A stretch of DNA of 64,000 nucleotides from an uncultured Planctomycetia bacterium. Lineage in GTDB: Bacteria; Omnitrophota; Gorgyraeia; CAYWPX01. The stretch's first letter is position 1. Every line of letters begins with the position of its first letter. A model generated the notes under the pieces. The model searched no databases. It was given only the letters and a program-made list of their open reading frames with translations, and was not told where the DNA came from. Where the stretch lies: the NCBI GenBank assembly GCA_964460615.1, contig CAYWPX010000002.1, forward strand, positions 7,220-71,219, written 5' to 3'. Positions 4,219 through 43,468 of the stretch are shown here, piece after piece. A program made the translations under genes and the position numbers.

Positions 4219-5652
4219 TTATGCCCTCATATAACTTCTGGAAATTAACTCCCCGACTTCTTTCCTCGCGAAAAAAAACAACAAGGCTAAATAGATAGAT
4301 ACACCAAGAAAAACACATATGGTTAAACTAAATAGCCCTATATTGTTCATGAAAATTCTTGCTATAATAACAATGACGAACATTACAAATGTAACAACAG
4401 AGCTTAATTTGATACCTTGGAAATATGAAAATAGATTAAGACTGATCAATGAATTTGTTATATGCTGGATAAATATAGTCCAGGCAATCTGTTCAATTGT
4501 ATAGCTTATTGCCACTCCGACTAACCCCCAATTCAAACCTATGAAGATAGCCAAGCTGGTGCAGATCACATTTAAGATGCTGAGCTTAAAAAGCCAATCC
4601 GCCTTACCTTGGGATAAAATAATGCTTGTAGTGGTAGTGTAAAGAGAATGGAATATACTGCAAATGCATAATATCCTTATCAGAATTATTGCCCCTGCCC
4701 ACTTCGGCCCAAAGACAACATTGACGAATTCCGGGGCTACTATAAACAAACCTGCCATAAGCGGGAAAGAAATATATGAAATGGACCTGATTATTACCAG
4801 ATAGACTCTCTTGAGGCGCTCCAGATCGTTATGGATTTTTGAAAAAGCAGGGAATAACACCTTTGTGATAACCCAGGATATATTCTGAAGCGGGAACATC
4901 ATTAGTTTGTGCGCAATAGTATAAAGTCCGAGTGCCTGCGGGCCTAAGAATTTTCCTATCAAAAGATAATCCATATTCCTTGCAAGATAATTGACAATAT
5001 TAAAACCTGTGAAATTAATACTGAAATGCAGCATGTCCTTTATCGCAGAATAAGAAAAAAATATTTTTGGCCGCCACTCGGAAAGCTTCCACAGTAAAAA
5101 GCTGTTTAAAATAGTATAGGATAGCATCTGGAAAACTAGGCTCCAAACTCCGAAACCTTTATATGCAAGGATTATCCCGACCGCTCCTGAGCCCGCTATT
5201 GCGACAATATCCCGTATAGTTAAGCTTCTGAAGTCCATTTCCTTCGTTAAAATAGTCTGATGAATTATGGTAAGAGAAGAGATAATGAAATTGAACGACA
5301 GAACGATCAAGATCGGCTTGAGCTCCGGCTTATTATAAAATAATGCAATAAGGGGTGATATCAATATAATGACCGAGGTAAGCAATAACCCGAATCCTAT
5401 ATTGATCCAGAAAGCCGAATATAAATGGCTATTATCTATGTCCTGTTTTTGTATAAGAGCTTTGCTTAGCCCCAGGTCCTTAAAAACATCCCCGAAACCC
5501 GTGAACACTACCGCCATCCCGACAATACCAAAATCACTTGGCGAAAGTAAACGCGCCAATACCGCTGTAATGATCAAACTGCTGACCTGCTTGCCGCCCT
5601 GAGAAACAAAAGACCAGAACAGCCCTTTTATAGTTTTCTGCTTAAGACTCAT
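4219..5652 (-). CDS. Wzx-like oligosaccharide flippase (polysaccharide biosynthesis protein, MOP superfamily)
   Basis: 477 aa with about 12-14 predicted TM helices. Start LKQKTIKGLFWSFVSQGGKQVSSLIITAVLARLLSPSDFGIVGMA is typical of Wzx/RfbX. Confidence 0.7.
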   Translation of the reverse strand: MSLKQKTIKGLFWSFVSQGGKQVSSLIITAVLARLLSPSDFGIVGMAVVFTGFGDVFKDLGLSKALIQKQDIDNSHLYSAFWINIGFGLLLTSVIILISPLIALFYNKPELKPILIVLSFNFIISSLTIIHQTILTKEMDFRSLTIRDIVAIAGSGAVGIILAYKGFGVWSLVFQMLSYTILNSFLLWKLSEWRPKIFFSYSAIKDMLHFSINFTGFNIVNYLARNMDYLLIGKFLGPQALGLYTIAHKLMMFPLQNISWVITKVLFPAFSKIHNDLERLKRVYLVIIRSISYISFPLMAGLFIVAPEFVNVVFGPKWAGAIILIRILCICSIFHSLYTTTTSIILSQGKADWLFKLSILNVICTSLAIFIGLNWGLVGVAISYTIEQIAWTIFIQHITNSLISLNLFSYFQGIKLSSVVTFVMFVIVIIARIFMNNIGLFSLTICVFLGVSIYLALLFFFARKEVGELISRSYMRA

Positions 5653-5713: not shown

Positions 5714-7117
5714 TCACTTAGCGCCTATACCAAATACCACTACCGGTATCGTCCTTAACAGTATATTCACATCCAGCCATAACGACCAATTATCAATATA
5801 TTCGAGATCCAATTTCATCCATTCCTCAAAATCGCGTATTTTATTGCGGCCCTTGATCTGCCATATGCAACTCAAGCCGGGCTTCATGCTAAGACGCCGC
5901 CTTTGCCAATAATCATATTCTTTGACCTCTTTCGGAAGCGGCGGCCTGGGCCCTATAAGGCTCATGTCGTTCTTTATAACATTCCACAGTTGGGGCAACT
6001 CATCCAGGCTGAATTTTCTTAGGAATCTGCCTATCGGCGTGATCCTGGGGTCATTTTCCATCTTAAACACAGGGCCATCCATTTCATTAAATTTCTTTAA
6101 GCTATCAAGCATAGCTTCTGCGCCTTCAAACATGGTCCTGAATTTATAAAATACGAACTTCCTGCCATTGAGCCCGCACCTTTCCTGCTTAAAGAATACA
6201 GGGCCGCTTGATGTAAGTTTGATAATAACCGCGATGATCGTCAAAAGCGGCGACAATATGACGAGAGCAATAGATGAAAAAATGATATCAATAAGACGCT
6301 TTATTAAAAGAGACCACACTTTATTCGGCGTGCACTCAAAGGTTAGTAAGGGAAAACCATGAAAATCGGCCTGTCTGGGCCGTGAAAGTTTGAGGTTAAA
6401 ATAGTCAAGTGCTACATGCACTTTAAGCCCCTCGGTCTCACAAAAACGCATGATATCCTCTATATCGTAAATCCAGGAACGCGGCACAACGAATATGACC
6501 TCATCCACAACATTATTATTTACGATATCTGGGATATCATCAAAAGACCCGAGTACTTTATAATTATTTATGGATTGATTTTTTCTTGAAGGGTCCTTGT
6601 CAACCATGCCGATTATCCTGAACCCGCATTCATTGTGATTTTCGATCAATGAAACCAGGTTTTCTGCCCTTTTACCCGTACCAACAATAAGAAGGTTCCG
6701 GTAATTATGCCCTTTTTCACGCATGATCCTTACTATGGTTATCAGTATGATCTTCTCAGCCAATATCAAGAGCGCTGACAGCGAAATAGAAAAAACTATT
6801 ATGTCTCTTCCTATATATGTCATATTGAACATGAAAATAAAACTGATAAAAAATAAGAGAGTGAATATACCTGCTTTCGGTATAATATATATTATTTCAT
6901 TGATAGACTTTATCCTGAAAGACTCATACATTTCGAAGAAATAGAGCATTGCAACCCAGATAACAGCGAACACAACCGGGAGGCCCTTAAAACTCGTATA
7001 CATATATATATCACCCTTGGTCTCCAGGTAATATATGAGGTAAAAAGCAAGAAGAGTTATGCCGAAGTCGGCCAGTATCGTAAGCCTTCTGAATACGGTA
7101 GAATACTGCTTAAGCAT
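5714..7117 (-). CDS. undecaprenyl-phosphate sugar phosphotransferase (bacterial sugar transferase, WbaP/WcaJ/EpsL-like priming enzyme)
   Basis: N-terminal TM helices and a C-terminal domain KRLIDIIFSSIALVILSPLL...GPVFFKQERCGLNGRKFVFYKFRTM...DELPQLWNVIKNDMSLIGPRPPLP, the Bac_transf signature. Confidence 0.8.
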   Translation of the reverse strand: MLKQYSTVFRRLTILADFGITLLAFYLIYYLETKGDIYMYTSFKGLPVVFAVIWVAMLYFFEMYESFRIKSINEIIYIIPKAGIFTLLFFISFIFMFNMTYIGRDIIVFSISLSALLILAEKIILITIVRIMREKGHNYRNLLIVGTGKRAENLVSLIENHNECGFRIIGMVDKDPSRKNQSINNYKVLGSFDDIPDIVNNNVVDEVIFVVPRSWIYDIEDIMRFCETEGLKVHVALDYFNLKLSRPRQADFHGFPLLTFECTPNKVWSLLIKRLIDIIFSSIALVILSPLLTIIAVIIKLTSSGPVFFKQERCGLNGRKFVFYKFRTMFEGAEAMLDSLKKFNEMDGPVFKMENDPRITPIGRFLRKFSLDELPQLWNVIKNDMSLIGPRPPLPKEVKEYDYWQRRRLSMKPGLSCIWQIKGRNKIRDFEEWMKLDLEYIDNWSLWLDVNILLRTIPVVVFGIGAK

Positions 7118-7227: not shown

Positions 7228-7425
7228 TTAAATGCCACACGACTTTTGCCGCATGGCAATATAATTTTCTATCTCTTGATCTGAGATCCTGTAGCCGCCG
7301 CGCCGCCCCTCTTTGTATGCGGCGATTTTTTTCTGCCTTACCAAAAGGCGTAAATGCCCCTCGCTAATACGTAAGATCTCGGCCGCCTCTTTTGTAACAA
7401 GCAATTTTTCTGGTTTCATATGCAT
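7228..7425 (-). CDS. small helix-turn-helix DNA-binding protein (excisionase/MerR-like HTH_17)
   Basis: 65 aa; LVTKEAAEILRISEGHLRLLVRQKKI is an HTH motif. Confidence 0.5.
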   Translation of the reverse strand: MHMKPEKLLVTKEAAEILRISEGHLRLLVRQKKIAAYKEGRRGGYRISDQEIENYIAMRQKSCGI

Positions 7426-7457
7426 TTCAATCCAATATAATATTTTTTAATATCATT

Positions 7458-7768
7458 TATAATTATAAAACAATCCGTGATTTAGAAAAGTGTCGGTTTC
7501 TACTTTTTCTTGACTTTTTTCTACCCATTTTCATTACTTATACCCTCAACAAAAAAATCGGCAATACCGATCGAGCCCCCGATATCTCCCGCCAATAATT
7601 AAAATGCTATTCAGTAGTTTCTTTGTTTTCATATGTATTCCAATTCAGCATAAGATTTTCTAATAGAATTTAATATGGTATGACAATTATAAAAAAATCC
7701 GCAATTAAGAAAAGCGGCGCATTATACTTATTTTTGACTTTTTTCTACCTATTCTTACTACTTATTCT
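7458..7768. repeat. tandemly duplicated ~85-bp promoter/regulatory module (copies ~7458-7545 and ~7684-7768)
   Basis: AATTATAAAA[C/A]AATCCG..A..AAAAG..TCGG....TTGACTTTTTTCTACC is about 80% identical between the two copies. Each copy ends in the TTGACTTTTTTCTACC motif. Confidence 0.6.
7510..7525 (-). promoter_or_regulatory. conserved motif instance 1 (plus TTGACTTTTTTCTACC; gene-sense GGTAGAAAAAAGTCAA), 85-100 bp upstream of the HTH gene
   Basis: Exact 16-mer shared with instances at 7734-7749 and 9632-9647; variants at 11141-11157, 13648-13663 and 15168-15183. Confidence 0.5.
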
Positions 7769-7821
7769 TTTTAGAAGTAAGATAGTGTCATATAAGTATC
7801 GCGGTAAGCGAGATAAAATAC

Positions 7822-9576
7822 CTACATCTCTGATTGAAAAGTAAAGTAAAATGTGGAAGGTCCTGCCCCTGGGGTAGGTTTATCACCAACACTACCTGCC
7901 CAATAGAGGCGCATTGACAAATGTTTAAAATGCAGTAAAAGTCCTCCTCCTACTCCGGCAAGAAATTTACTTTTTTTCTCCCCTGAAAAGGCCTTGCTTA
8001 ACCCTCCTCCTCCTATATCAACGAAAAATACCGGTTGTATCTGATTGCGCAACGGAGTATCCTGGCCAGGAAGCTTCAAGTCATTGGGTATGAAGTATGT
8101 AGGGAATACCCAATCAAAATTCACTACTGCCCCTGTATCCGCAAGGTAATCACCTTCAGGGTAACCTCGTACGGAATCCGCTCCGCCCAATTGGAACTGT
8201 TCGGTGGGCGCAAGAGTATGTGTAGCAGTTTGGAAGCGGCTTCGGATCGTCATGTAACTTTCTAGGAACATCTTCTGCAGCCGATTCAATGAATGCTCAT
8301 ATTTGAAGAAAAAACCTCCCGAGTTCGGCCTGCTCAGTTTGGAATAATCCCGCGAATACGCTCCAAGAAACCTTGCCGTACCAAAACTAAACCTGGGAGA
8401 AAATGACGATTGGCCGGTCATATCTATTTTTGATACATCAAAACCAATATAAGGTATACGAAGCTGGTCATTCGAGGAAGTGGTGCTGCCTACATTATTT
8501 ATCACGGACTTAATGTCAATACCAAGATTCGCATAAGTCTCGGAACTTTCTGATAATTCGAGCTCCCAGGCCAGATAAGGTGAGTAGATCTGCGTATTAC
8601 CCGTGATCTTAAAAGGCTTTAATTCCTTACCCAACTTTGACCAAAAATATGTCGCATTTACGCCCAGCTTTGTCCCATAGGTCCCTACCGGAATACTATA
8701 ACTTACTGATTCGCCAAATGATTTGCCGCTATAGATCGTGCTTAAGAAAATATTATCTCCGAGACCGGAAACGTTTGAACTGCGGATAGTCCACATAGAG
8801 CGGTACTTCCCTGAGAGGCGTGACCCGCGGTTATCCTCCAGGAACCCTATATGCCAGGGGAATTTGTCGTCCACTTTCAGGTATATATCGGATGTTTGCG
8901 GCTCTTTGCCGGTTGAAATCACTGCTTTTATATCAAGGTCAGAGTTTTTGTTGAGGCGCAGGATATCCCTTGCCAAAGTCCTTATGTTCAAAATCTCATT
9001 TTTTTTTAAGTGAATGAATTTTTTTATAAAATCGGTTGAAAACCACTTATTATTTTCAATATTCAGATACCCCATTCTGCCTTCGGCAATACGTAACTCC
9101 ACAGCACCATCCCTGATCTCCTGTTCGGGGATATACACTATGGAAGTTAGATACCCTTTTTTCTTATATTCCAACTCTATCATATTGGCAATTGTCTCAA
9201 TATCGGTAAAGGTAACGGATTTACCGATGTAAGGCTTGTAAATAAATTCAAAATCCTGCCTTTTAAATTCAGTGGATCCCGTGACATTAACTTCTTTTAA
9301 TATAAAGGATGGGCCTTCAATTTCCGGCCGAACTTTCTCTTTTTCAATTTCTATCTTGGGGGCTTTTGGCGTTTTATATTCAAGGTACTTTTTTGCTCTC
9401 TCGCTATCATACTTATAACGCTCTGCCTGCGCGCCCGGTTCCTGCCCAGAAGGTAATCGTGGAGTTTCTTGAGCCAGCGCCCAAATTTCGCAAAAAAAGA
9501 TAAATAAAATCAAAAAAGCCGCTTTACATGCGACCTTCTCGATGATATTGCTACATACCAGATTATCTTTTTTCAT
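7822..9576 (-). CDS. ShlB/FhaC/HecB-family outer-membrane transporter (TpsB-like, POTRA plus beta-barrel)
   Basis: Signal/TM start AAFLILFIFFCEIWALAQE. POTRA-like FILKEVNVTGSTEFKRQDFEFIYKPYIGKSVTFTDIETIANMIELEYKKKGYLTSIVYIPEQEIRDGAVELRIAEGRMGYL. The long C-terminal region is rich in beta-strand pattern. No TpsA partner is present in the window. Confidence 0.55.
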   Translation of the reverse strand: MKKDNLVCSNIIEKVACKAAFLILFIFFCEIWALAQETPRLPSGQEPGAQAERYKYDSERAKKYLEYKTPKAPKIEIEKEKVRPEIEGPSFILKEVNVTGSTEFKRQDFEFIYKPYIGKSVTFTDIETIANMIELEYKKKGYLTSIVYIPEQEIRDGAVELRIAEGRMGYLNIENNKWFSTDFIKKFIHLKKNEILNIRTLARDILRLNKNSDLDIKAVISTGKEPQTSDIYLKVDDKFPWHIGFLEDNRGSRLSGKYRSMWTIRSSNVSGLGDNIFLSTIYSGKSFGESVSYSIPVGTYGTKLGVNATYFWSKLGKELKPFKITGNTQIYSPYLAWELELSESSETYANLGIDIKSVINNVGSTTSSNDQLRIPYIGFDVSKIDMTGQSSFSPRFSFGTARFLGAYSRDYSKLSRPNSGGFFFKYEHSLNRLQKMFLESYMTIRSRFQTATHTLAPTEQFQLGGADSVRGYPEGDYLADTGAVVNFDWVFPTYFIPNDLKLPGQDTPLRNQIQPVFFVDIGGGGLSKAFSGEKKSKFLAGVGGGLLLHFKHLSMRLYWAGSVGDKPTPGAGPSTFYFTFQSEM

Positions 9577-9631
9577 GTGAGCTATCTTATTTTATATAGA
9601 AAATTTGTGAATGACCCAATTATTCTTTTTA

Positions 9632-9647
9632 TTGACTTTTTTCTACC
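9632..9647 (-). promoter_or_regulatory. conserved motif instance 3, 56-71 bp upstream of the TpsB-like gene
   Basis: TTGACTTTTTTCTACC exact. Confidence 0.5.
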
Positions 9648-9739
9648 AAAAATAAAAAACCCCTATTCCATTTTGAATTTGCTGAACAAGTTGTACTAAA
9701 AGGCTTCGGGATTTATACTTTGCCGAAAAATAGACTTTT

Positions 9740-10597
9740 TTAGTTTTTTTTTGCGTAAAATTGGGACAACTTTGTCCTCCTTAGGATCTTATAATTATCC
9801 TTATTACCTCCGCGATAGATCTTTGATTCTCCTGGCTTTAACAATAATAATTTGAGATAATATCTCGCTTTGCCTACCAGAGACACCCTTCTCGCCATGC
9901 CCTCTTCCATCGCATAAGTACAGGTATTACATGTTCCGCACGATAAGCCCATTATTAGGGGCCTATGGCAAAACCAGGTTTTGTCTAATATATAAAGAAA
10001 GCCTAATTTTCTGGCAATAGTCTCCATTTCGATCTTGCTGACATCAAAAAGCGGAAATTTAAAATATTTGAATAACAAAAGATCTTTATCCTGAACCAAA
10101 GGACTTAACTTATAATAGTGCTCATCACCATTAACTATCTTATCTATAGATCCTTTGAGTAATTTGTGTATCGACGTCTCTTTTTCTACGGTAAGCTCGA
10201 TATCCTTGACACCGCTCTGTTCAGCAAACCTGGACAACAATCCATATTGCGTCCCGTACCAGGCTCGTGCACGGAGATTTTTATAGTACGTATTAAGCGC
10301 TTCATTAGATTCTATATCCTCGACATTTATATATTCGGTCGGCAATAAATTGGTACCGGCCCATGGATATTTTCTATATACGATCTTTCTGATTCTATCC
10401 ATGCACTTTATTTCTACCCGGGTAGAGGCCCTATCCTTATAATTGATTATATAATAAGGCTGAATTTCGCCTTTATTGGCAAGTATTAAGCTTATAAGTC
10501 TGAACGTGGAATCCCACCCGCCTGTCCAGAATATATTTGTCTTTTGATCATTAGCCATATCTCGATTAAGCCCCGGATGATTTTGGTTCCTATCCAT
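9740..10597 (-). CDS. QueC/ExsB-like PP-loop ATPase
   Basis: FWTGGWDSTFRL is a PP-loop SGGxDS variant. C-terminal C-x9-C-G-T-C-N-T-C zinc motif as in QueC. An ExsB-type homolog in an EPS locus has precedent. Confidence 0.45.
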   Translation of the reverse strand: MDRNQNHPGLNRDMANDQKTNIFWTGGWDSTFRLISLILANKGEIQPYYIINYKDRASTRVEIKCMDRIRKIVYRKYPWAGTNLLPTEYINVEDIESNEALNTYYKNLRARAWYGTQYGLLSRFAEQSGVKDIELTVEKETSIHKLLKGSIDKIVNGDEHYYKLSPLVQDKDLLLFKYFKFPLFDVSKIEMETIARKLGFLYILDKTWFCHRPLIMGLSCGTCNTCTYAMEEGMARRVSLVGKARYYLKLLLLKPGESKIYRGGNKDNYKILRRTKLSQFYAKKN

Positions 10598-10645
10598 AAC
10601 TTAGGCCGGTTTCTTCATTATCAACATCTTTAAAAATCAGTGCTA

Positions 10646-11071
10646 TTAAGATCCATTCTTATAGCGCTTCATCATTCCTAAAACACCTGCGCCGATCGCA
10701 AACAATGCCGCACTTACAGGCTCCGGGGTCACGCAGGCATGAAGAGTCCCGTAACCGTTAATGTGTACATTATATGAATTTTCCTTCTGCAAAATAGGCC
10801 AATTCCAATTCTTAAGATCACGGCTGACAGTAGACTTCCTCGGAAAACCTTCTTCAAATATTGTATTTTTGTTACCCCCGTATCCCCACCATCCGAGTAT
10901 TGATGTATCATTATTCTTTAATTCAACATGTATCCACGGGATTTCGTTTTTCTTAAATATGTATTTCTCATTCCCCGAACTATCACTTAACCAAAAATCC
11001 TTCGCAAAAGCGCGATCTGAGACAGCTAAAAATAATACTACCGACATGAACACAACAATTATGTTTTTCAT
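10646..11071 (-). CDS. PEP-CTERM sorting-domain secreted protein
   Basis: Signal peptide MKNIIVVFMSVVLFLAVS (start chosen at the internal Met; the track ORF extends to 11122). C-terminus VTPEPVSAALFAIGAGVLGMMKRYKNGS has PEP, a TM helix and a basic tail. Confidence 0.6.
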   Translation of the reverse strand: MKNIIVVFMSVVLFLAVSDRAFAKDFWLSDSSGNEKYIFKKNEIPWIHVELKNNDTSILGWWGYGGNKNTIFEEGFPRKSTVSRDLKNWNWPILQKENSYNVHINGYGTLHACVTPEPVSAALFAIGAGVLGMMKRYKNGS

Positions 11072-11422
11072 ACAACACTCCTTTTTGTAGACTATTTTAC
11101 AAAAAGGTATATGAAAAACCATATGCCAAATCCACTTTTACCATACTTTTTTCTACCAATTATATCTTATAACATTTTTAAGATATGCTTTTACAAGAAC
11201 TTTAACAACAAATCAATGACCATTTGGTTATATAATTTAGTAAATAAGTGAAGTAGTTTATTTTTACTTTTTAAGAATGCGAATACCTGCACAAGTTATG
11301 CTGCCGAGGAAAGGTTAGCCATCAGTTGCTAATAACGGATAAATACCTGCAACATAGCCGTAATAATGCTTTTGTAACAAGTTTTGTTTTATTAATTTAA
11401 TAAATCCGGATAACAAAACCGA

Positions 11423-13552
11423 TTATTGCTGCTCTGACGGCTTTTTATTAAAATCATAATAATCAAAACCCGGACGGACTGCCTGCATCTTCTGCCATAT
11501 AAATGCGTCGGTATTGCCCTCCAGATAATATTTGAGGTAAACGGTTACCATCATTTCGGAGGTTTCAGTCAAAGCATAGAACACTTTACCCCTGTTGAAC
11601 GCATCAATAAAGCAGATCCCGGTTAAACATCCCAGGTTAAACAGTCTTGAATATTTAAATTTGTCCGGTGAAATAGCCAGGTCCCTGCGGGAAATAGCTA
11701 CAAGCCCTTTATAGTGTGTTTTTGGATAACAGATATTATCAACAATTTTTGATACTGTAAGATCTGCTGACCTTATCCTGATTGCGTCAGCGATCACGTT
11801 GCCGCTGGGTGTATTATTATCCAACGATACCCAATAACGCCCGCTCTGAAAATAATATTGCCCCAGGGTATTCCATTGTTTGCCCTTAATTGTCTGGTCG
11901 GCGTAAACTACTACATTAACCGAATTATTATTGATCGTATAGCGGGCAGATCTGGTATTTTTTTCCAAAACCGGCCACCATGAATAGACGTTATAATTTC
12001 CGGGCGTAGAGATCGTAAAATAAAATCTAAATTTATTTTCACCTGAACCGGGCCCTGACCAGTGATAGGTCTTGCCATAACTCGAATCTAGATCCAGGTC
12101 TTCAGCCCAGTTACCTGCGATCTCAACATCCGGTACGTATGATGCGGTATTAGTGATAAAATATTTTCGGTGGTCCAAATTCGACGGATCGGGCGCTTCG
12201 CCCGTAGCGGAATACCACGCCGGCTTCCCGCTTTCCGGGAACCTCTGGAGAGCGCTAGCGCGGGCGGTTTCAACCTTATAATAGGTCGAGTCTCCGGGTA
12301 CCTGATAAGTCAAATAATAGTTATACGGAGGAGCCCCTTTTGGGTCATTGAAGTTATACGGCATAATGGCGCTTGTCCCGTCTTTAAATGTTGGCCACCA
12401 CAGCGGAAAAGAATGGTTTTTTTTCACTACCTGCAGATTAACACGGAAAATTTTTGAACCGTAATTTTCCATTCTTTCATCATCCATATAACGCAGATCA
12501 TTCACTGATTTTTTCGCTATCTCATCTTCGGAAGAGAAAACAAGCCCCATGCCAAAATTGGAGTGGCCGACAAAAATCACATGCGCATTTGAAGTAGTAA
12601 GAGAACGTTTGAACCCTATTGGGTCATCAATAAGGTGAATAAAATGGGTCCTGCCTTTAGCATTTCTGTATACCCATACCTGCCCGCTCTTGGTTGCGCC
12701 AATGGTCTTAAAAAAATATTCCAGATCAGGCTTCATAATAGAAGGAGAATATCCTAGACTGATATATATATGTTCCGTGCTTGTCATAGAGGGATCTATA
12801 TTAACCTCCGTAGACGCTTCTTCCGACCAATTACCGCTATTGTCCTGTACCTTAAAATAGATAGTGTGCTTGCCTGTTGAAAGATTTGTTTTCGTCAGCC
12901 CGGCAGCCGAACCGTCAAAGGTCCCGTCTAAGCTTGAACGCCAGCTATAACCTGTTATCTTTCCGTTCAGATCGGTACCGTGCCCGGAAAACCTGACCTT
13001 GCTTGAAGGCGCTGCGGGATTAGGAGTTATAGAATCTATATAAGCCACAGGGGGGGTGCCGGCAGGGACATAAACAAATTTTATGGCATCTGCGCATGTT
13101 GTATAAATATTATAGCTGAGCGATTTGACGCTGACTGTCCCGCCTCTAATTTTATCAAAGTCATAGATACCGAGAAGGTTCCACCTGCCTCCATTCATTG
13201 TCTGATCCACATATACTATATTGTCTATGCCGGAATGTGTTATGGTAACCGGTGCATAGGTCATGTTATTTGGCGATCGGCTCCACCACATATATACCTT
13301 ATAACGGCCCGATTGCGGCAGATTTGCATGCCACGCATACCTTGAATCGTAATAGCCCAAAAGCGAACCAGAGCCATAAGAATCAGAGGCAGACGTAGGT
13401 ATCCATGTTCCGTGATTGGTTGTTCCGCTAAAACCGTTATCAACGATTATTTCCGTTGGTACTTCTTGCGCTTTTGCCGCAATACCGGCACAAAATTCAA
13501 AAAATAATGATATTACTATCCAAAAAATAATTTTCCTTTTGGTATTTTTCAT
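11423..13552 (-). CDS. large secreted multi-domain repeat protein (two homologous ~130-aa terminal repeats flanking a PKD/Ig-like segment)
   Basis: Signal peptide MKNTKRKIIFWIVISLFFEFCAG. N-terminal repeat YKVYMWW...TITHSGIDNIVYVDQTMNGGRWNLLGIYDF and C-terminal repeat YNVYSWW...VVVYADQTIKGKQWNTLGQYYF are homologous. The central segment has a TPNPAAPSSKVRFSGHGTDLNGKITGYSW PKD-like stretch. Confidence 0.5.
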   Translation of the reverse strand: MKNTKRKIIFWIVISLFFEFCAGIAAKAQEVPTEIIVDNGFSGTTNHGTWIPTSASDSYGSGSLLGYYDSRYAWHANLPQSGRYKVYMWWSRSPNNMTYAPVTITHSGIDNIVYVDQTMNGGRWNLLGIYDFDKIRGGTVSVKSLSYNIYTTCADAIKFVYVPAGTPPVAYIDSITPNPAAPSSKVRFSGHGTDLNGKITGYSWRSSLDGTFDGSAAGLTKTNLSTGKHTIYFKVQDNSGNWSEEASTEVNIDPSMTSTEHIYISLGYSPSIMKPDLEYFFKTIGATKSGQVWVYRNAKGRTHFIHLIDDPIGFKRSLTTSNAHVIFVGHSNFGMGLVFSSEDEIAKKSVNDLRYMDDERMENYGSKIFRVNLQVVKKNHSFPLWWPTFKDGTSAIMPYNFNDPKGAPPYNYYLTYQVPGDSTYYKVETARASALQRFPESGKPAWYSATGEAPDPSNLDHRKYFITNTASYVPDVEIAGNWAEDLDLDSSYGKTYHWSGPGSGENKFRFYFTISTPGNYNVYSWWPVLEKNTRSARYTINNNSVNVVVYADQTIKGKQWNTLGQYYFQSGRYWVSLDNNTPSGNVIADAIRIRSADLTVSKIVDNICYPKTHYKGLVAISRRDLAISPDKFKYSRLFNLGCLTGICFIDAFNRGKVFYALTETSEMMVTVYLKYYLEGNTDAFIWQKMQAVRPGFDYYDFNKKPSEQQ

Positions 13553-13692
13553 AAAAATAACTCCTCACGGCATTTTTACATGATTTAATAAGCACTATAT
13601 TCTAAACCCTTTGAAAAAATATAGCATTGATTCGAATACACCTTTTATTGACCTTTTTCCACTAAGGAATTTTAAACAGGCTTTTCTTTTCT

Positions 13693-13735
13693 GAAAAAGA
13701 AAAACCCTGATCGCATTAAGCAAACAGGGCTAAAG
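13693..13735 (-). terminator. Rho-independent terminator hairpin (CCCTGATCGCATTAAGCAAACAGGG followed by a T-run on the minus strand); near-identical copy at 57533-57575
   Basis: Inverted repeat CCCTG...CAGGG followed on the minus strand by TTTTTCTTTTTC; about 85% identical to the element 3' of tRNA-His. Confidence 0.5.
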
Positions 13736-13971
13736 ATTTTACCTTCAAAACAATTATTAAATAATCCGCCTTTTTATACCTTATTTTTTCTGAATAATTC
13801 CCTTGATACCATAAAGCTTAGGATGACTATTTAGGCCTATCCCTTCGGGTACAAAGAAAGGCGTACCAAATATAATCTTATATACATCTGTCCTCTCTTG
13901 TCCCCACTTAATGATAATAATAACACGTCTTTACTTATATCATCATATATCAATATCCTATTATTGAGCGA

Positions 13972-15096
13972 TCATTTCCATATCTTAATAAAAACTATTA
14001 CCGCGCCGCCAAGTCCGAAAAGAAATATTGATACTGGTTCAGGAATAATAACCTTAGGGGTCAGTAAAAATCCGTATAATATAGGCATCTCTTCTCCGTC
14101 TTCATAAATACGCGTATGTCCATCCCTTGTAAAACCACCTACTATCTGGCCGGAATCGTTAATGCCATCGGCCCACATAAGATTTAACCCTTCCTCATAT
14201 GGGATCAAATCCTGGAGTTTCCTCATCCCTTCCTTACTATCCCAGATAAAAGCAAAATTATTATAGTCTGAACTAGAATATTCTCCCACCACAACGCTAG
14301 AGCTATTTATGGATTTGGCTATGCTATTGACTCCCAATAGATGTATATCTTTTATGCCCTCATTTACATTCCAAATAAAAGCGTGCCTGGGACTTCTCCC
14401 ATCGACAGGAGTTGAGCCTACAACTTCATTCAGTTCATTGATATCATAAACAATTGTAAATTGAATTTCACTTTGGCTAAGAGAACCTATTTCTCTCATC
14501 CCGTCAGGTTCGTCCCATATGGCAGCTCTATTGGCAACACGACCATATTTATCAAGGCTATACATTCCTGCAATCGACCCGCGGTTATTAATACACCTCG
14601 CGTCACTCGTGCCTCCCATGGACCTAAACTCTGTTACACCCTTATCCTGGCTCCACGTGGCAGCGCAAACCGGCTTAAAGTCTTCGCCTCCTAAAGGGCT
14701 ATATTCCCTCGCTACCACACAAGAATCATTTATACTCGAGGGATAAAAACCATAACCGGGAACGTAATCGAGGATCTTTTTCATGCCTGAAGCTTTATTC
14801 CAGATAAAAATATATTTGTTGTTGTAGCCAAGGACATCTCCTTTATTATTAAGGCCCCTGATAAGAAAACTTTGATTTATTTTTGTTATGCCTGAACCTT
14901 CGTCCCAAAAAAAAGCGGTTTTATCTGTAAGCTGCCCCGCCACATTCCCATTGTTGTTCAGATAGAAAGCGTGTTCACTATCGCGAAACCACATTTCAAT
15001 CCCAATGTCTTTGAAATCATACATTGGAAATTCTTTAGCATGAACTAACGGGGCTGACAAAATAAGCGTGATAATAAAAAATAGAATCTTATTCAT
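13972..15096 (-). CDS. PEP-CTERM sorting-domain secreted protein
   Basis: Signal peptide MNKILFFIITLILSAPLVHA. C-terminus IIPEPVSIFLFGLGGAVIVFIKIWK has PEP, a TM helix and a basic end. Confidence 0.6.
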   Translation of the reverse strand: MNKILFFIITLILSAPLVHAKEFPMYDFKDIGIEMWFRDSEHAFYLNNNGNVAGQLTDKTAFFWDEGSGITKINQSFLIRGLNNKGDVLGYNNKYIFIWNKASGMKKILDYVPGYGFYPSSINDSCVVAREYSPLGGEDFKPVCAATWSQDKGVTEFRSMGGTSDARCINNRGSIAGMYSLDKYGRVANRAAIWDEPDGMREIGSLSQSEIQFTIVYDINELNEVVGSTPVDGRSPRHAFIWNVNEGIKDIHLLGVNSIAKSINSSSVVVGEYSSSDYNNFAFIWDSKEGMRKLQDLIPYEEGLNLMWADGINDSGQIVGGFTRDGHTRIYEDGEEMPILYGFLLTPKVIIPEPVSIFLFGLGGAVIVFIKIWK

Positions 15097-15473
15097 ATTT
15101 CCCCTTTTTTACTGATATCAGTTTAAATGAATACATAAAAAAGGCAATGGGGGGTTTCTCTTTTTTTTTGACTAATTTCTATTGTATCAATTACCCTAAA
15201 ATTGGTTTTTATGCAAATATGCCGATAAAATCAAATCTTCAAAAAGAGACAGGCATGATCTGACGGTTTTTTTAAGTTTATTTACTTGTTAAGTTAATTT
15301 TTGATATAATATCTTTTGAAAAAGAACTCGAACCAAATGAAGCTCTAGAACTGCGGACTATTTGTTATATAATAGATAGGATAAAAAAAATTATTACCCA
15401 AAACTATAAGTCTATTAATATAAATAATATAAACATCGCATACCGCGAAAAAGGCCGCGGACAACCCGTAATA

Positions 15474-23516: not shown

Positions 23517-26453
23517 TTAAAAACTATACCTTACCGCTACCGAACCATAAATACCGAAGAATTGATCTTTTATTTCCGTATCGCATGTTCCGACTAAAGA
23601 TACGTTATTGTCCATATCGAAAGAGAGCTTGCCTCCTGCGTTAAAACTGCTTTGGGCGGGTTTGCAGCCATTGGAATTAAACGATGCGCCGCCTCCGTTA
23701 AATGTCGATGTCATAGCCATATCATCTCCCATAAAATCATACAGCCATTTTCCGTGGGCTTCGGGAGTAAATACGCCGTATTTTGATTTCATAGAATAGC
23801 TTACTCCTGCTCCTACGCCTGACTGCAACAGGTTGTAATTTTGGCTCTTAGTAGTTAGGTTCATAGACCCGGCACCTCTTTCAGTATAACCTTCAAGACG
23901 AAGATGGCTGTATTGAAGTGAAGCAAGTGGTGTAAGTTTTACGTTATTGCCTAAATCGAAGTTGTAGCCGCCTCCTATGTAGGCGCCGTATTGCTGGCCG
24001 TCATATGCGGCGTTTGCTTGCCTATTTATAGCAGTCCCGACATTTACATCGCGTTTTCCGTCATACCAGTTCCATGCAAAAGAACCGGCTGCATCTATGA
24101 AGTAAGGATATTTTTTATCCTGGTATCCGCCGTATACTGTTCCTTGGCCGCTGTTGATAACAGTCCTTCCGCTATTAGCATCTGAAAAGACTTTTCCGTA
24201 AGCATAACCTCCGCTTAGGCCAAGTGTGATATTGTCATTAAATAGGTGGTCTATGCCTATTGCTGTTCCGGCATTCCACGCATCGTATCCGAGAACACCT
24301 TTACGCGTGCCTTGTGTAAGATAACTGCCGTAGCCTTTGCCCCATATGCCGTTTAGATTGATCTCGTCACCCGAAGAGATGCCTGTTTTAGCTAAGTCGC
24401 TTGAAGCAACATTTAAGACTTCATTAGCTCTATCAATAGAGGCTCCGACGAAGTTATATAACGAAGACGTAGTGTTATTAAAAACACCCGCATCGACTTC
24501 TGGGACCATGCTGTTGAGGGATTGAGCGATCTCATCTCCCGAAGTTAGCGAATCAAGATTGCCTAAAACTGTTTGCATATCTCCTGTTGCAGTATTATTG
24601 ATAGCAAGATTATTCAAGACTGCACCTGCTGCGCTAGCATCGGGATTAGATGCGTAGCTATTGTAGCTATTAGCGCGGGTTGCAGTTAAAATTAGATCGC
24701 CGGTTGTTTTATCTCCGGAAAAATTAAATATCGGGCTACTCGAACTAATTACGCTTGGCACAGCAGTTATACCCGTGGCCCCTGTATCTACAACTTTAAA
24801 AGTTGCATTATTTGGAATGTATCCGCCTATTGTAACGCCGACGCTGGTTGCCGCGTTTACTAAAGTGCCTGTTGTTGTAATCTTCCCAAAATTAGTTGCT
24901 GAATTAGCCGAAAGATTTAATGTGGAAACATAGCCGTTATTAATTGTCAGCGCACTATTTCCTACATCGAGGGTCGCCGTAGTAGCAGCATTTAAATCAA
25001 TATCTCCGGAAATCGTTCCGCGGTTTGTTATGCTGATTGTTCCGCCGGCCGTGGAACTATCTATAGCCGTGAGACCTGAAATTGTCCCACCGTGATAATT
25101 TGCAATGACTGAATTACCGCTTTCTATTTTTATCGCTGTGCCGGTTGCAGAAGTTGATATCTCGCCGTAATTATTTACTGTATTATTTCCGCTGGTCGGC
25201 ACCGGGACCAAGGCGGAATATACCGTTGTATCGCCTTTAAAAAGAATTGCGATATCATCTGTGCCGACTTCACCCCATTTTACGGTAGTCGCCCCGGATA
25301 TAGTGCCTCTATTCTCAATTTCATAATTTAACGACCAAACCAAAATTCCCTGCCCGCCGGATAAAGAACTTCCGTTAGCGATTTTTATTTTGTTATTATT
25401 AGTTAAATCCGTTTTAATTTTGGTCTGGAAACGATGCCCCGCCCAGATAGTATCGCAGGTACCATTGACATCGAAACTTGCAAAACCATTTCCGTATTCC
25501 GAGCCCGTAGTGGTGCTTAAATTGGTCCCATCATTCCTAGTATAGATATAAGACTGCGTCGGATATATGCCATAAACCGTAACGGTCCCGTAATTATTTC
25601 CTAAAACAGTTCCCGAAAAATTCTGATTTGGAAGAATAACAAATTCGCTCATCCCTTGTATCTCGGAAAGCGTCGAACCGCCGTTATCCCAAAAATAGGT
25701 ATAACCGAATTGCGTAAAAGGGAACTTAGAAGCTCCGCCGCTATAAGCATTATTCCTGAAATTTGTAAAAAAAGTTTTAAAGTCATCATATGTAGCCTGG
25801 AGCATATTGGCTGGCTTAGCAAGGAATGCGCCGCCATCCGTAAAATCGGAAGGATTATTTGAAATGTAAGTCGACATATCAACACGTTTTGTCGGCCGTA
25901 TAAGATTATCGTTTATATAACCTGTCGTAGCAGGTCCTACCGCATACTCAATAGTAGCGTTATGGCTTCCGTCGTTATTCATACCCAATCCTCTCTCAAG
26001 AAGCTTGGTAACATCGGAGCCTGTTAAAGAGCCCTTATTTGTATCAAGAAACTTTGTCATATCATTTCCGACAGTTACAAAAGCACCCGAAGCTGACGCA
26101 ATAGTTCCGACAATATTGTAATCCTCGCCCGGCGCTTTTGTCGTGGAACTGGTAGTTATCCAGAACTGTTGTTTGGATAAAGTTCTTGCAATAACTTTTG
26201 TATCCGTAGCGTCATATTTAATTCCATAACTTGAATTTTCGGAAGACTGCCCCCCTCCGACAATAGTAATAATAGAACTGCCGGGCGAACTCGGCGGAAG
26301 CCAAACGGAGCTAGGCGTAGTAGCATGCGCTATAGCACTAGTTATTGACTCATCATATGTTTCAGCTAGGGCGTTAAATGAAAAACTTAAATAAAATATT
26401 GAGAGGAAAATACTGAGGGGAAAAAATATACAGAGCTTAAAATGTTTCATCAA
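23517..26453 (-). CDS. type V autotransporter (beta-helical passenger plus C-terminal beta-barrel)
   Basis: Signal peptide. Passenger rich in GTISG / G-x-T repeats. The C-terminal ~280 aa has alternating aromatic beta-strands ending ...SVAVRYSF, the terminal Phe typical of autotransporter barrels. Confidence 0.7.
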   Translation of the reverse strand: MMKHFKLCIFFPLSIFLSIFYLSFSFNALAETYDESITSAIAHATTPSSVWLPPSSPGSSIITIVGGGQSSENSSYGIKYDATDTKVIARTLSKQQFWITTSSTTKAPGEDYNIVGTIASASGAFVTVGNDMTKFLDTNKGSLTGSDVTKLLERGLGMNNDGSHNATIEYAVGPATTGYINDNLIRPTKRVDMSTYISNNPSDFTDGGAFLAKPANMLQATYDDFKTFFTNFRNNAYSGGASKFPFTQFGYTYFWDNGGSTLSEIQGMSEFVILPNQNFSGTVLGNNYGTVTVYGIYPTQSYIYTRNDGTNLSTTTGSEYGNGFASFDVNGTCDTIWAGHRFQTKIKTDLTNNNKIKIANGSSLSGGQGILVWSLNYEIENRGTISGATTVKWGEVGTDDIAILFKGDTTVYSALVPVPTSGNNTVNNYGEISTSATGTAIKIESGNSVIANYHGGTISGLTAIDSSTAGGTISITNRGTISGDIDLNAATTATLDVGNSALTINNGYVSTLNLSANSATNFGKITTTGTLVNAATSVGVTIGGYIPNNATFKVVDTGATGITAVPSVISSSSPIFNFSGDKTTGDLILTATRANSYNSYASNPDASAAGAVLNNLAINNTATGDMQTVLGNLDSLTSGDEIAQSLNSMVPEVDAGVFNNTTSSLYNFVGASIDRANEVLNVASSDLAKTGISSGDEINLNGIWGKGYGSYLTQGTRKGVLGYDAWNAGTAIGIDHLFNDNITLGLSGGYAYGKVFSDANSGRTVINSGQGTVYGGYQDKKYPYFIDAAGSFAWNWYDGKRDVNVGTAINRQANAAYDGQQYGAYIGGGYNFDLGNNVKLTPLASLQYSHLRLEGYTERGAGSMNLTTKSQNYNLLQSGVGAGVSYSMKSKYGVFTPEAHGKWLYDFMGDDMAMTSTFNGGGASFNSNGCKPAQSSFNAGGKLSFDMDNNVSLVGTCDTEIKDQFFGIYGSVAVRYSF

Positions 26454-38469: not shown

Positions 38470-38829
38470 TTAGTTATTTTCCGCGAGCGCTTTTTTCACC
38501 TTTTCGAGCAATAGTTGCGTCCCGTGTGATTTATCGTGATAATCTATAGCGCCTTTAACGATGCTCTTTTGCTCATCAAGGGGATAAACGCTCGCTACTA
38601 TAACTTTCACTTTATTGTGAAATGACTTCATAACTTCATATAAAACACTTCCGAATACCACCGGCATTTTTATGTCGAGCAGCACGAGATCTATCCCGCC
38701 TTTATTCAATGCGTCGTATGCCTCGGATGCGTCGGAACTTTCGATCACTTCGAAGCCTTCATCCGTAAGCAACTGAGTGTATATTTTGCGAACACGATCC
38801 TCGTCTTCAATGATAAGTATTCTTTTCAT
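38470..38829 (-). CDS. single-domain response regulator (CheY-like receiver)
   Basis: ILIIEDE...D-x-K-M-P receiver signature. Confidence 0.75.
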   Translation of the reverse strand: MKRILIIEDEDRVRKIYTQLLTDEGFEVIESSDASEAYDALNKGGIDLVLLDIKMPVVFGSVLYEVMKSFHNKVKVIVASVYPLDEQKSIVKGAIDYHDKSHGTQLLLEKVKKALAENN

Positions 38830-38886
38830 TAATCAAAGTCCTTGGATTAATAATTTTAAGCACAACACGAGTATATCAAATTGCTC

Positions 38887-38914
38887 ATTAATAAATCGTT
38901 AACGATTTATTAAT
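38887..38914. promoter_or_regulatory. 28-bp perfect palindrome ATTAATAAATCGTTAACGATTTATTAAT (candidate operator or bidirectional terminator) between the HK and receiver genes
   Basis: ATTAATAAATCGTT is exactly reverse-complementary to AACGATTTATTAAT. A T7 run follows on the plus strand. Confidence 0.5.
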
Positions 38915-38990
38915 TTTTTTAATAAGTGGGAATAGGGTCGCGATTGGAAATTTCGGGAAGAAATATTATTTGGATACTTTTAGAAGAGCA

Positions 38991-40043
38991 CTAATGAGGC
39001 AAGATTGGCAGAGCCACGATAAATGTGGAGCCCTTGCCAAGCGTACTGTTAACTGTAATATTGGCTTTGTGAAGTTCTGCTATTGACTGGGCAATCGGTA
39101 AACCAAGGCCGGAGCCTGAGGTATATCGATTTTTTTCTTTATTTGCCCGGAAAAATTTATCGAATAACTTCGGTATATCTTCTTCCGCTATGCCCATGCC
39201 GGTATCAGAAACGGATATAATAGCTTTTCTTTTCTTATATTTGATGTCTATTTTTATCTGGCCGTCTTGAGGGGTAAACTTGATGGCGTTATCAATAATA
39301 TTAAAAAATAACCTTCTCAAGCTCAGTTCGTCGCCCTTAACCTGTTCCGATATTTCCGGAATATTAATATCTACGCTTATGTTTTTTTCTGTGGTAAGGA
39401 TTTTGCTCTGTTCATGAATATCTCTAAGAAATTGGTTTAAATCGATTTTTTCAAAATTCAAGAACTCCGGCCTGTATGTCATTTTTGTGAGAAGCAGCAG
39501 GTCTTCTATGGTTTTAAGCATTTTTTTTGATTCGTCCAAAGCAATGCCAATTACTTTTTTATACTCTTCATTATCGCGTTCCTTTTTTAAAGCAATTTCC
39601 GCCTCTCCCCTTATGATGGCGATAGGTGTTTTTAATTCATGCGCTATATAAGAGTTGGATTCCACAATATATTTAAAAGAGCTTTCCAGACGTGATATCA
39701 TATCGTTGAAAGAAGAAATTAAATACTTTGTTTCCGCGCCTGAATGTTTAATATCAACTCTTGCGCTCAAATCTTCATGAGTAATCTGTTCCGCAATTTC
39801 CGCAATCTTTTTGACTGGTTTCATTATGTGTCTTACGATGGCCCGCCATACCAGATATAGGAGCGTAGCTGCTATTAAAATAGGAATAAAAAGTTTTACA
39901 AATATATATCCCTTAACCATATCATCGATTGCTTTTCTGATGTTGTCGCTTGTAAATATATAAATGAAGCAGCTATAAATAAAAAGGAAAGCGCTTAATA
40001 TGACGATATAAACCAAGTCTGTTTTAAATTTTAACTTCTTCAT
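38991..40043 (-). CDS. sensor histidine kinase (TM, HAMP, HisKA, HATPase_c)
   Basis: H-box HELKTPIAIIRGEAEIAL and a G-box GSGLGLPIAQSIAELHKANI. Confidence 0.8.
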   Translation of the reverse strand: MKKLKFKTDLVYIVILSAFLFIYSCFIYIFTSDNIRKAIDDMVKGYIFVKLFIPILIAATLLYLVWRAIVRHIMKPVKKIAEIAEQITHEDLSARVDIKHSGAETKYLISSFNDMISRLESSFKYIVESNSYIAHELKTPIAIIRGEAEIALKKERDNEEYKKVIGIALDESKKMLKTIEDLLLLTKMTYRPEFLNFEKIDLNQFLRDIHEQSKILTTEKNISVDINIPEISEQVKGDELSLRRLFFNIIDNAIKFTPQDGQIKIDIKYKKRKAIISVSDTGMGIAEEDIPKLFDKFFRANKEKNRYTSGSGLGLPIAQSIAELHKANITVNSTLGKGSTFIVALPILPH

Positions 40044-40045
40044 AT

Positions 40046-40714
40046 TTATTCTTTAAGGATATACCCTGTTCCATGGATGGTATGGATAAGCGGCTTGTCA
40101 AAATCTTTATCGATCTTGTTCCTTAGGTGATTTACAAACACATCTATTATATTTGAAAGACTGTCGAATTCCTCATTCCAGACATGCTCGGAAATCATCG
40201 TCCTCGTAATGACTTCATTCGCATTCATAATGAAATATTCCAAAAGCGCATATTCCTTGCTTGTCAGATCGATCTCCTTGCCGTCACGTTTGACTTTATG
40301 GGTAAGCTGGTTCAATTCTAAATCGGCAACCCTAAGTATCGACATCTTATCGGCTCGTTTTCTTCGAAGAAGCGCTCTTACCCGAGCTAAAAATTCATCG
40401 AACGAAAAGGGTTTTGTCAGGTAGTCATCCGCCCCAAAATCCAGCCCCTTCACCTTATCGCGCACACTGTCTTTAGCTGTAATAATCAATATGGGCGTGT
40501 CCATTTTTTTATTTCGTATATGTTTGCATATGGCAAGCCCGTTCGTATCCGGCAGCATAAGATCTAAAATTATCAGATCATAAGGATTGATATCGACCAA
40601 AAAAAGCGCGTCTTCACCATTATGGGCGATATCTATGACATAGCACTCTTCTTTTAGCCCTTTAGTGACAAAATCCGCCATTCTTTTTTCATCTTCTACC
40701 AGCAAGATTCTCAT
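40046..40714 (-). CDS. OmpR/PhoB-family response regulator
   Basis: Receiver domain plus winged-helix Trans_reg_C (LTSKEYALLEYF...GTGYIL). Confidence 0.85.
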   Translation of the reverse strand: MRILLVEDEKRMADFVTKGLKEECYVIDIAHNGEDALFLVDINPYDLIILDLMLPDTNGLAICKHIRNKKMDTPILIITAKDSVRDKVKGLDFGADDYLTKPFSFDEFLARVRALLRRKRADKMSILRVADLELNQLTHKVKRDGKEIDLTSKEYALLEYFIMNANEVITRTMISEHVWNEEFDSLSNIIDVFVNHLRNKIDKDFDKPLIHTIHGTGYILKE

Positions 40715-43306: not shown

Positions 43307-43468
43307 TTTCTCCTCTTTTGTCTTTCCACCGCTGGTCTTCGGCAACCCAACTACCTTTCCAGCCTTAACACCTGGCTGACGAAGGCTTGTGGCTTTGCGC
43401 CCCACGATTTCTCGTGGTTTACCTTTATCGGCTATATATAGCTTACCATACTATCTTGCTTTTGTCAA
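43271..43468 (-). promoter_or_regulatory. structured leader/sRNA element upstream of corA: promoter plus antiterminator/terminator attenuator (M-box riboswitch-like)
   Basis: TTGACA (43468-43463 on the minus strand), a 17-nt spacer, then TAAGCT. Leader segment GCCGATAAAG (minus, 43433-43424) is exactly complementary to CTTTATCGGC inside the terminator hairpin (43293-43284). AGGTGTTAAGGCT and GGAAAGAC resemble M-box conserved blocks. Confidence 0.45.

Follow-up and report, generated by a model that had tools for sequence, protein, structure and literature searches.

In a 64,000-nucleotide stretch of DNA from an uncultured bacterium whose relatives are Omnitrophota (contig CAYWPX010000002.1, positions 7,220 to 71,219 of the forward strand; the whole stretch is called the window, and its own numbering is used throughout), we found evidence that a short motif repeated upstream of adjacent secretion and exopolysaccharide genes is one part of a longer promoter element. 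With a probability of roughly 0.6, the motif copies are the upstream half of a ~42-bp operator for an activator at ordinary sigma-70-type promoters, and the best candidate for the protein that reads it is a response regulator joining a phospho-receiver domain (REC) to an AraC-type DNA-binding domain, here called REC+AraC. Taken on its own, the claim that a true operator of the activator type lies upstream of sigma-70-like promoters is very probable, and we infer that the element serves activation rather than repression. The initial annotation of the window had seen in the motif a shared cis-regulatory signal by which the neighbouring genes for secretion and exopolysaccharide would form a single predicted regulon, and in this respect it is supported.

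Six copies of the motif in the window

The exact 16-mer TTGACTTTTTTCTACC was found in a scan of the window at 7510-7525, 7734-7749 and 9632-9647, and variants with three mismatches lie at 11142-11157 and 13648-13663. When up to three mismatches are allowed there are 7 matches against 1.14 expected, a count reached in 0 of 100 shuffles; the remaining three-mismatch matches (29595 and 34094) fall in coding sequence and lack the extended architecture described below. A weak sixth copy, at 15168-15183, was identified by direct reading of the sequence. All six copies are intergenic and lie on the gene-sense (minus) strand. A 42-nt matrix trained on 36 sites from other organisms only gave its top six window scores to these same six sites (47.0, 45.1, 41.9, 25.8, 23.8 and 23.1 bits), with the next window match at -1.4 and a maximum of 6.5 in 20 Markov-1 random windows, and it revealed no further site in the 64 kb. 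Because this foreign-only matrix ranks 15168-15183 within the top six, the weak copy is a genuine member of the set. The six-site motif is therefore real and far above chance, and scan and matrix (23-47 bits) together bear out the earlier description of six intergenic sites in one orientation. An Rfam search of 7-16 kb returned no RNA family, and the motif corresponds to no known RNA element.

A ~140-bp tandem duplication (7400-7541 versus 7613-7765) accounts for the copies at 7510 and 7734, which therefore do not count as independent of each other. Downstream of the 7734 copy there is no full gene, only a degenerate 5' end of the gene for a small helix-turn-helix protein (HTH_17) and a terminator-like hairpin (7572-7556). 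Because that copy precedes only this degenerate 5' end, the six copies amount to five transcription units and one orphan promoter. Of the six consecutive genes that had been proposed behind the motif, five units thus stand, and the 7734 copy drops out as a product of the duplication. The orphan promoter is followed by an open reading frame (ORF) of 28 codons, which is the degenerate HTH 5' end. A second motif-bearing promoter is found 173-314 nt upstream of the HTH_17 promoter in the window (7549-7749, minus strand) and also in two related loci, L002 (4331-4503) and L140 (110-423; L numbers are our labels for the loci compared). From the orphan promoter a short transcript or small RNA could arise; alternatively, the orphan could serve as a tandem promoter.

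A tandem element that abuts the -35 hexamer

Gene-sense alignment of the six copies extends the motif to GGTAGAAAAAAGTCAA-nAAAAAGTAnAA, and the consensus of the longer element reads rGTrGAAAAAAGTCAAnAAAAAGnrGAA-tnAGCCAAT. The sequence first described as a 16-mer is indeed repeated, but the conserved element is ~42 nt long: it spans ~-72 to -36, the 16-mer being its distal part (~-70 to -55), abuts a sigma-70-like -35 hexamer and keeps a fixed distance to a TATAAT-like -10 hexamer. In 6/6 window sites a -35-like hexamer follows the 28-mer at +8/+9 and a -10 hexamer of the form TAnnnT at +31/+32 (Table 1). Several -35 hexamers of the window promoters are weak (TTTTCT, ATGGTT, ATGCTA, TTGCCT). 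At the promoter s3 an automated promoter scan called TTCACA-16-TAAGAT. Transcription would start ~43 nt downstream of the 28-mer, at predicted positions of ~7455, 7679, 9577, 11087, 13592 and 15113.

Within the element a bipartite unit, GyrGAA-N4-GyCAAT, is repeated directly in tandem. Box A (GyrGAA) occupies positions 2-7 and 23-28, a period of 21 nt, and box B (GyCAAT) positions 12-17 and 32-37, a period of 20 nt, with A-tracts between the boxes at 6-11 and 18-22. The proximal box B abuts the -35 hexamer, GCCAAT at +4 to +9 running into TTtACa at +9 to +14. Conservation of the distal unit and of the proximal box A is good in the window and in its close relatives, and the proximal half is also seen in sites of loci that were fetched with the regulator protein and never selected on that half.

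Table 1. Promoters carrying the element and associated genes in the window.
Feature	Positions	Strand	28-mer	-35-like hexamer	-10 hexamer	Bits (foreign matrix)	Remarks
s1	7462..7525	-	GGTAGAAAAAAGTCAAGAAAAAGTAGAA, 7525-7498	TTTTCT, 7489-7484	TATAAT, 7467-7462	47.0	promoter of HTH_17 gene; predicted start ~7455
s2	7686..7749	-	7749-7722	TTTTCT, 7713-7708	TATAAT, 7691-7686	41.9	orphan tandem duplicate of s1
s3	9584..9647	-	9647-9620	TTCACA, 9611-9606	TAAGAT, 9589-9584	45.1	promoter of ShlB/TpsB-like outer-membrane gene; predicted start ~9577
s4	11094..11157	-	GGTAGAAAAAAGTATGGTAAAAGTGGAT, 11157-11130	weak, 11122-11117	TAAAAT, 11099-11094	23.1	promoter of small PEP-CTERM gene; probably also serves the QueC-like gene
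s5	13599..13663	-	AGTGGAAAAAGGTCAATAAAAGGTGTAT, 13663-13636		TAGAAT, 13604-13599	23.8	promoter of 709-aa Golvesin_C/PKD gene
s6	15120..15183	-	AATAGAAATTAGTCAAAAAAAAAGAGAA, 15183-15156	TTGCCT, 15147-15142	TAAACT, 15125-15120	25.8	promoter of 374-aa HAF-repeat PEP-CTERM gene
374-aa secreted HAF-repeat protein	13972..15096	-					PEP-CTERM tail; C-terminus ...IPEPVSIFLFGLGGAVIVFIKIWK
709-aa secreted protein	11423..13552	-					Golvesin_C and PKD-like domains
141-aa signal-peptide protein	10646..11071	-					PEP-CTERM tail; TIGR02595 borderline, 16.9 bits vs cutoff 16
285-aa QueC-like PP-loop protein	9740..10597	-					probable co-transcription; no motif of its own
584-aa ShlB/FhaC-type (TpsB-like, POTRA_2) outer-membrane transporter	7822..9576	-					start codon 9576
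HTH_17 (excisionase-family) small DNA-binding protein, 63/65 aa	7228..7425	-					start codon 7419 or 7425
Exopolysaccharide priming glycosyltransferase	5714..7117	-					downstream of HTH_17 gene
Flippase	4219-5652						after priming glycosyltransferase

Occurrence of the element in relatives and in other lineages

A close relative (L002) was found through the HTH protein, which is 75% identical there and heads the gene order HTH, porin, priming transferase, Poly_export, Wzz. This locus carries three copies of the motif: a tandem pair ahead of the HTH gene and a single copy ahead of a histidine-kinase/receiver operon. In the window, L002 and L140 the HTH promoter is conserved through to the start codon, and the conservation begins exactly at the 5' edge of the motif.

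A scan of a metagenome collection with the pattern GTRGAAAAANGTCWANWAWARG gave at least 120 matches. Many of those listed are chance or coding matches, for example a family of gut contigs with GGTGGAAAAAGGTCTACAAAAAGCTGGA, and they were excluded by requiring the extended architecture. Several dozen non-redundant matches among those listed share conservation outside the searched pattern, namely GAA at 26-28, t-n-A-G-C-C-A-A-T at +1 to +9, TTtACa at +9 to +14 and TAtAaT at +32 to +37. Outside the pattern the foreign sites have G26 at a frequency of.93, A28 at.93, T29 at.74, A31 at.78 and G32 at.89, and their -10 consensus at +32 to +37 is T.63 A.78 T A.67 A T.74. At least four of the five CCAAT bases at +5 to +9 are present in 29/75 candidates among the matches listed, where ~1.6% would be expected by chance.

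The architecture is present in many metagenome contigs, with GC contents from 0.33 to 0.64, and in metagenome-assembled genomes (MAGs) labelled as Omnitrophota, Aureabacteria, Endomicrobiales, Margulisiibacteriota and 'Deltaproteobacteria'. The genes that follow the foreign copies are heterogeneous: they encode receiver-only response regulators, histidine kinases, a REC-T2SSE ATPase, a Crp-like regulator, an HTH_17-HD-GYP protein, Hsp20, a LonB-like protease, Poly_export, epimerases, a P-type ATPase, cupredoxin, DoxX and several small secreted proteins. A signal dedicated to PEP-CTERM or secreted-protein genes, as the initial annotation had suggested, does not fit with targets such as Hsp20, the LonB-like protease, the histidine kinases and the P-type ATPase. 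Nor does the element behave as a mobile or duplicated cassette resembling a miniature inverted-repeat transposable element: only s1 and s2 share flanks, by local tandem duplication, the other copies share only the element, and the foreign copies on contigs of GC 0.33-0.64 have nothing in common beyond the element and the hexamers. A genome scan based on the TpsB-like protein retrieved one Omnitrophota locus (L001, 48% identical), which is without the motif, and no motif was found in ~54 kb of Omnitrophota polysaccharide loci that are without the regulator described next (L001, L007 and L010).

A REC+AraC response regulator as the candidate reader

One DNA-binding family recurs beside the motif, a REC+AraC(HTH_18) response regulator of ~245 aa. 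By tblastn, an ortholog adjoins the motif in 9 motif-fetched loci: the motif stands directly upstream of its gene in L014/L058, L054, L059 and L091, and directly after it in L018, L096, L106 and L110. Of the motif-fetched loci without a bona fide motif, 0 hold the regulator. When the ORFs of the motif loci were clustered, proteins containing a REC domain were the sole recurrent family. The reciprocal test gave the same association, as 5/5 non-redundant loci fetched with the regulator protein (L134, L136, L137, L138 and L139) carry the motif; their 68 kb contain 8 sites with scores of 22 or more, in the same register and usually before a receiver-only gene. The family is large, with 633 matches at E <=1e-20 and 55-65% identity across lineages, and these lineages, by the submitters' labels, are the same as those of the motif (Omnitrophota, Aureabacteria, Margulisiibacteriota, Endomicrobiales and Deltaproteobacteria). 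No curated NCBIfam equivalog was found for it. Genomic linkage of this kind points to the REC+AraC regulator as the probable reader of the element.

In the neighbourhoods L059, L134, L136 and L139 the REC+AraC gene is repeatedly accompanied by a receiver-only gene and by oxidative-stress genes (ferritin/rubrerythrin, desulfoferrodoxin, ferredoxin, hemerythrin, rubredoxin, AhpC). Because REC+AraC repeatedly adjoins such genes, there is a hint that the signal reaching it may be oxygen or redox. We also observed that only 7 nt separate the end of the predicted -10 hexamer from the ATG, both at the TpsB-like gene (9576-9589, minus strand) and at the REC+AraC gene of L054 (6650-6725), and that neither gene has a Shine-Dalgarno sequence. 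This spacing and the lack of a Shine-Dalgarno sequence suggest that both mRNAs may be leaderless.

An OmpR-type regulator was considered as the reader and rejected: the window holds one (40046-40714), but no OmpR-type DNA-binding domain was found in any motif locus. It belongs to a separate cluster at 38470-40714 (minus strand), made up of the OmpR-type response regulator, a HAMP histidine kinase and a receiver-only protein, and this cluster is unlinked to the motif.

Proposed mechanism and comparison with known operators

We hypothesise AraC-type activation because the operator is a tandem bipartite repeat with a ~21-bp period whose proximal site touches the -35. AraC (at I1-I2) and XylS bind tandem direct repeats of ~21-bp period that touch or overlap the -35, and the two HTH motifs of MarA read two boxes about one helical turn apart. 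In the mechanism that we propose, the REC+AraC regulator would be encoded elsewhere in the genome, outside the window, and would be activated through phosphorylation by a PAS-type histidine kinase; its phosphorylated dimer, with two-HTH AraC-type domains, would bind head to tail from -72 to -36 and recruit sigma-70 RNA polymerase to promoters with weak -35 hexamers, and the phased A-tracts may add a bend. Five units would then be activated together, comprising two PEP-CTERM genes (one of them with the QueC-like gene), the Golvesin_C/PKD gene, the TpsB-like transporter gene and the HTH_17 gene.

The likeness to the class II operators of the AraC/XylS family (AraC I1-I2 at pBAD, XylS at Pm, the MarA marbox) lies in the bipartite half-site with boxes about one helical turn apart, in the two direct-repeat half-sites of ~21-bp period and in the proximal site that abuts or overlaps the sigma-70 -35; in addition, the candidate reader, which is proposed from genomic linkage, carries HTH_18/HTH_AraC domains. 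The differences are that the boxes here read GyrGAA and GyCAAT with long A-tracts, and that the candidate is a phospho-receiver fusion and not a ligand-binding AraC. The pho box of PhoB/OmpR-type regulators is similar in having direct repeats, of ~10-11-bp period, immediately upstream of the -35 or in its place, bound by the dimer of a phosphorylated response regulator, which is also what we predict for the candidate here. It differs in that the boxes of our element alternate between A and B, which makes the true unit ~21 bp, and in that the motif shows no linkage to an OmpR-type DNA-binding domain.

The conserved site described upstream of PEP-CTERM genes by Haft and colleagues, with which the motif had been compared at the outset, is a proteobacterial enhancer motif followed after ~63 nt by a sigma-54 -24/-12 promoter and read by the NtrC-type regulator PrsR, and the same work notes that further motifs await discovery in organisms other than Proteobacteria (PMC1569441). 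Both systems place a shared upstream signal before single-gene PEP-CTERM operons beside an exopolysaccharide locus, and in both the reader, here a predicted one, is a two-component response regulator. The present element differs in its sigma-70-like promoter, in an operator adjoining the -35 and in having targets elsewhere that are not PEP-CTERM genes. The two elements are not the same: TGGCAC-N5-TTGCW at up to two mismatches has 18 matches in the window against 23 expected, none of them in the six upstream regions; the relatives of the window are Omnitrophota and not Proteobacteria with PrsR, PrsK and PrsT; and no NtrC-type regulator occurs among the annotated genes of the window, whose annotation is incomplete.

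Weighing the alternatives

Several points count against an operator read by REC+AraC. The regulator gene is absent from the 64-kb window, and in L134, L136 and L137 it has no motif directly upstream; the motif-fetched sample is limited to the matches listed and carries a bias from the pattern used to collect it; phylum assignments of the MAGs come from the submitters; and both the window and its close relatives have a degenerate proximal box B. Instead of reading the motif, the regulator could be conserved as one of its targets or neighbours. It is on the whole unlikely that the element is the operator of some other transcription factor, with REC+AraC merely a conserved member or neighbour of the regulon. 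Such a factor would suit the three regulator genes that have no copy of their own, as well as the many signalling genes, the regulator itself included, that the motif precedes, and linkage alone does not separate a reader from a target. Yet no second DNA-binding family recurs in the motif loci, a tandem bipartite repeat abutting the -35 is what an AraC-type dimer would be expected to occupy, and regulator and motif occur together in every regulator-seeded locus.

The remaining explanations do without the regulator. The two A-tracts (6-11 and 18-22), about one helical turn apart at -65 to -49, could act in a factor-independent way, as an UP element or curved DNA contacting the alpha subunit of RNA polymerase and boosting strong promoters, and their location does overlap the classical UP region, with A-rich sequence upstream of the -35 at ~-40 to -60. 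We consider this improbable, since UP elements are A/T-only (-59 to -38) and belong to strong promoters generally, whereas the element here has nearly invariant G, T and C positions (GTrG, GTC, GnrG, GCC), does not match the UP consensus NNAAAWWTWTTTTNNNAAANNN, reaches -72 and is carried by only six promoters in 64 kb; an UP element would also leave the linkage to the regulator gene unexplained. Slightly less probable still is binding by the adjacent HTH_17 protein, which the initial annotation had raised and which would amount to autoregulation together with control of the local cluster. None of the six window sites is more than 8 kb away from the HTH gene, one of them drives it, the motif is kept before this gene in L002 and L140, and proteins of the excisionase family are able to occupy direct repeats in a head-to-tail arrangement. 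Orthologs that are 70% identical nevertheless sit in other Omnitrophota polysaccharide loci without the motif, the motif occurs in many loci and phyla without HTH_17, including regulator-seeded loci of other lineages without any HTH_17 match, and its targets elsewhere are unrelated to polysaccharide loci.

Least probable, and in our view very remote, is the promoter of an alternative sigma factor, of the extracytoplasmic function (ECF) type or sigma-54, an identity that had also been offered for the motif. A motif common to functionally related envelope genes is typical of ECF regulons, and block 2 of the motif (AAGTAnAA), 17 nt after GGTAGA, superficially resembles a -10 element. Against it, the motif lies at ~-70 to -43 and does not itself supply the -35 and -10: separate sigma-70-like hexamers (TTtACa and TAtAaT) follow 9 and 31-32 nt past the 28-mer, at a fixed register in window and foreign sites alike. 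There are no elements of GGAAC/CGTC type, and no sigma-54 -24/-12 site was found in any of the six upstream regions. The separate downstream hexamers of the foreign sites likewise speak against the motif as a -35 (GGTAGA) with a -10 (GTAnAA) or as a sigma-H-like promoter. A plus-strand TTGACT as a divergent -35 was rejected as well, all downstream genes being co-oriented with the gene-sense motif, and resemblances to DnaA box, IHF, LytTR and MraZ sites were dropped for poor sequence match.

Possible significance

In kind, an activator site at a sigma-70 promoter is ordinary. The pair of operator and regulator nevertheless appears to be undescribed and strikingly conserved across several uncultivated lineages. 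No paper was found in a literature search on the motif sequence or the regulator, the sequence strings matching only unrelated primers and short hairpin RNAs, and no relevant work came up in searches on promoters of Omnitrophota and on AraC regulators. To our knowledge, gene regulation in the Omnitrophota and neighbouring candidate phyla is essentially a blank, the organisms being uncultivated. With a conserved operator suited to automated scanning and a named candidate regulator family, regulons could be predicted directly from MAGs. For the window, we predict that a two-component signal jointly turns on PEP-CTERM proteins, a TpsB-type transporter and the leading end of an exopolysaccharide locus; such a system would resemble proteobacterial PrsK/PrsR in function but consist of different components.

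As a more tentative proposal, one response regulator and a ~42-bp operator, kept nearly unchanged across several uncultivated and mostly anaerobic phyla, might constitute an undescribed master switch; the groups concerned would be Omnitrophota, Aureabacteria, Elusimicrobiota/Endomicrobiales, Margulisiibacteriota and some 'Deltaproteobacteria' MAGs. If this were true, the signal of a PAS kinase would be coupled to surface and biofilm functions (exopolysaccharide export, PEP-CTERM proteins, the TpsB transporter, the REC-T2SSE ATPase) and also to stress functions (Hsp20, Lon, rubrerythrin, superoxide reductase), forming a deeply conserved, unnamed regulon of the LexA or Fur kind.

Genes downstream of the element and further features of the window

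The identities first given to the genes behind the motif broadly hold (Table 1), except that the small PEP-CTERM gene starts at 11071, downstream of the Shine-Dalgarno sequence AAGGAG, and not at 11122. By synteny with polysaccharide loci, the HTH_17 gene is the first gene of an exopolysaccharide locus that contains a priming glycosyltransferase, a Wzx flippase, a pyruvyl transferase and a GT2 enzyme. This gene (58-65 aa) is conserved in Omnitrophota polysaccharide loci (the window, L002 and L006-L011), where it lies between export genes (Wzz, Poly_export) and biosynthesis genes. At its very end in the window, before the priming glycosyltransferase gene (7117), there is a terminator-like hairpin with a T-run (7233-7258, minus strand); in L002 only 15 nt separate the HTH gene from the next gene. 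Control of the exopolysaccharide biosynthesis genes from s1 would need read-through of the hairpin at 7258-7233.

A 978-aa autotransporter is encoded at 23517-26453 (minus strand; beta-domain E-value 6.5e-55) without an upstream copy of the motif, from which it follows that the predicted regulon does not take in every secreted-protein gene of the window. Finally, a c-di-GMP-I-GGC variant riboswitch (RF03167) was detected at 43337-43432 (minus strand), scoring 62.8 bits where the gathering score is 59; the gene that it directly precedes encodes a CorA-like Mg2+ transporter (42254-43174, minus strand).

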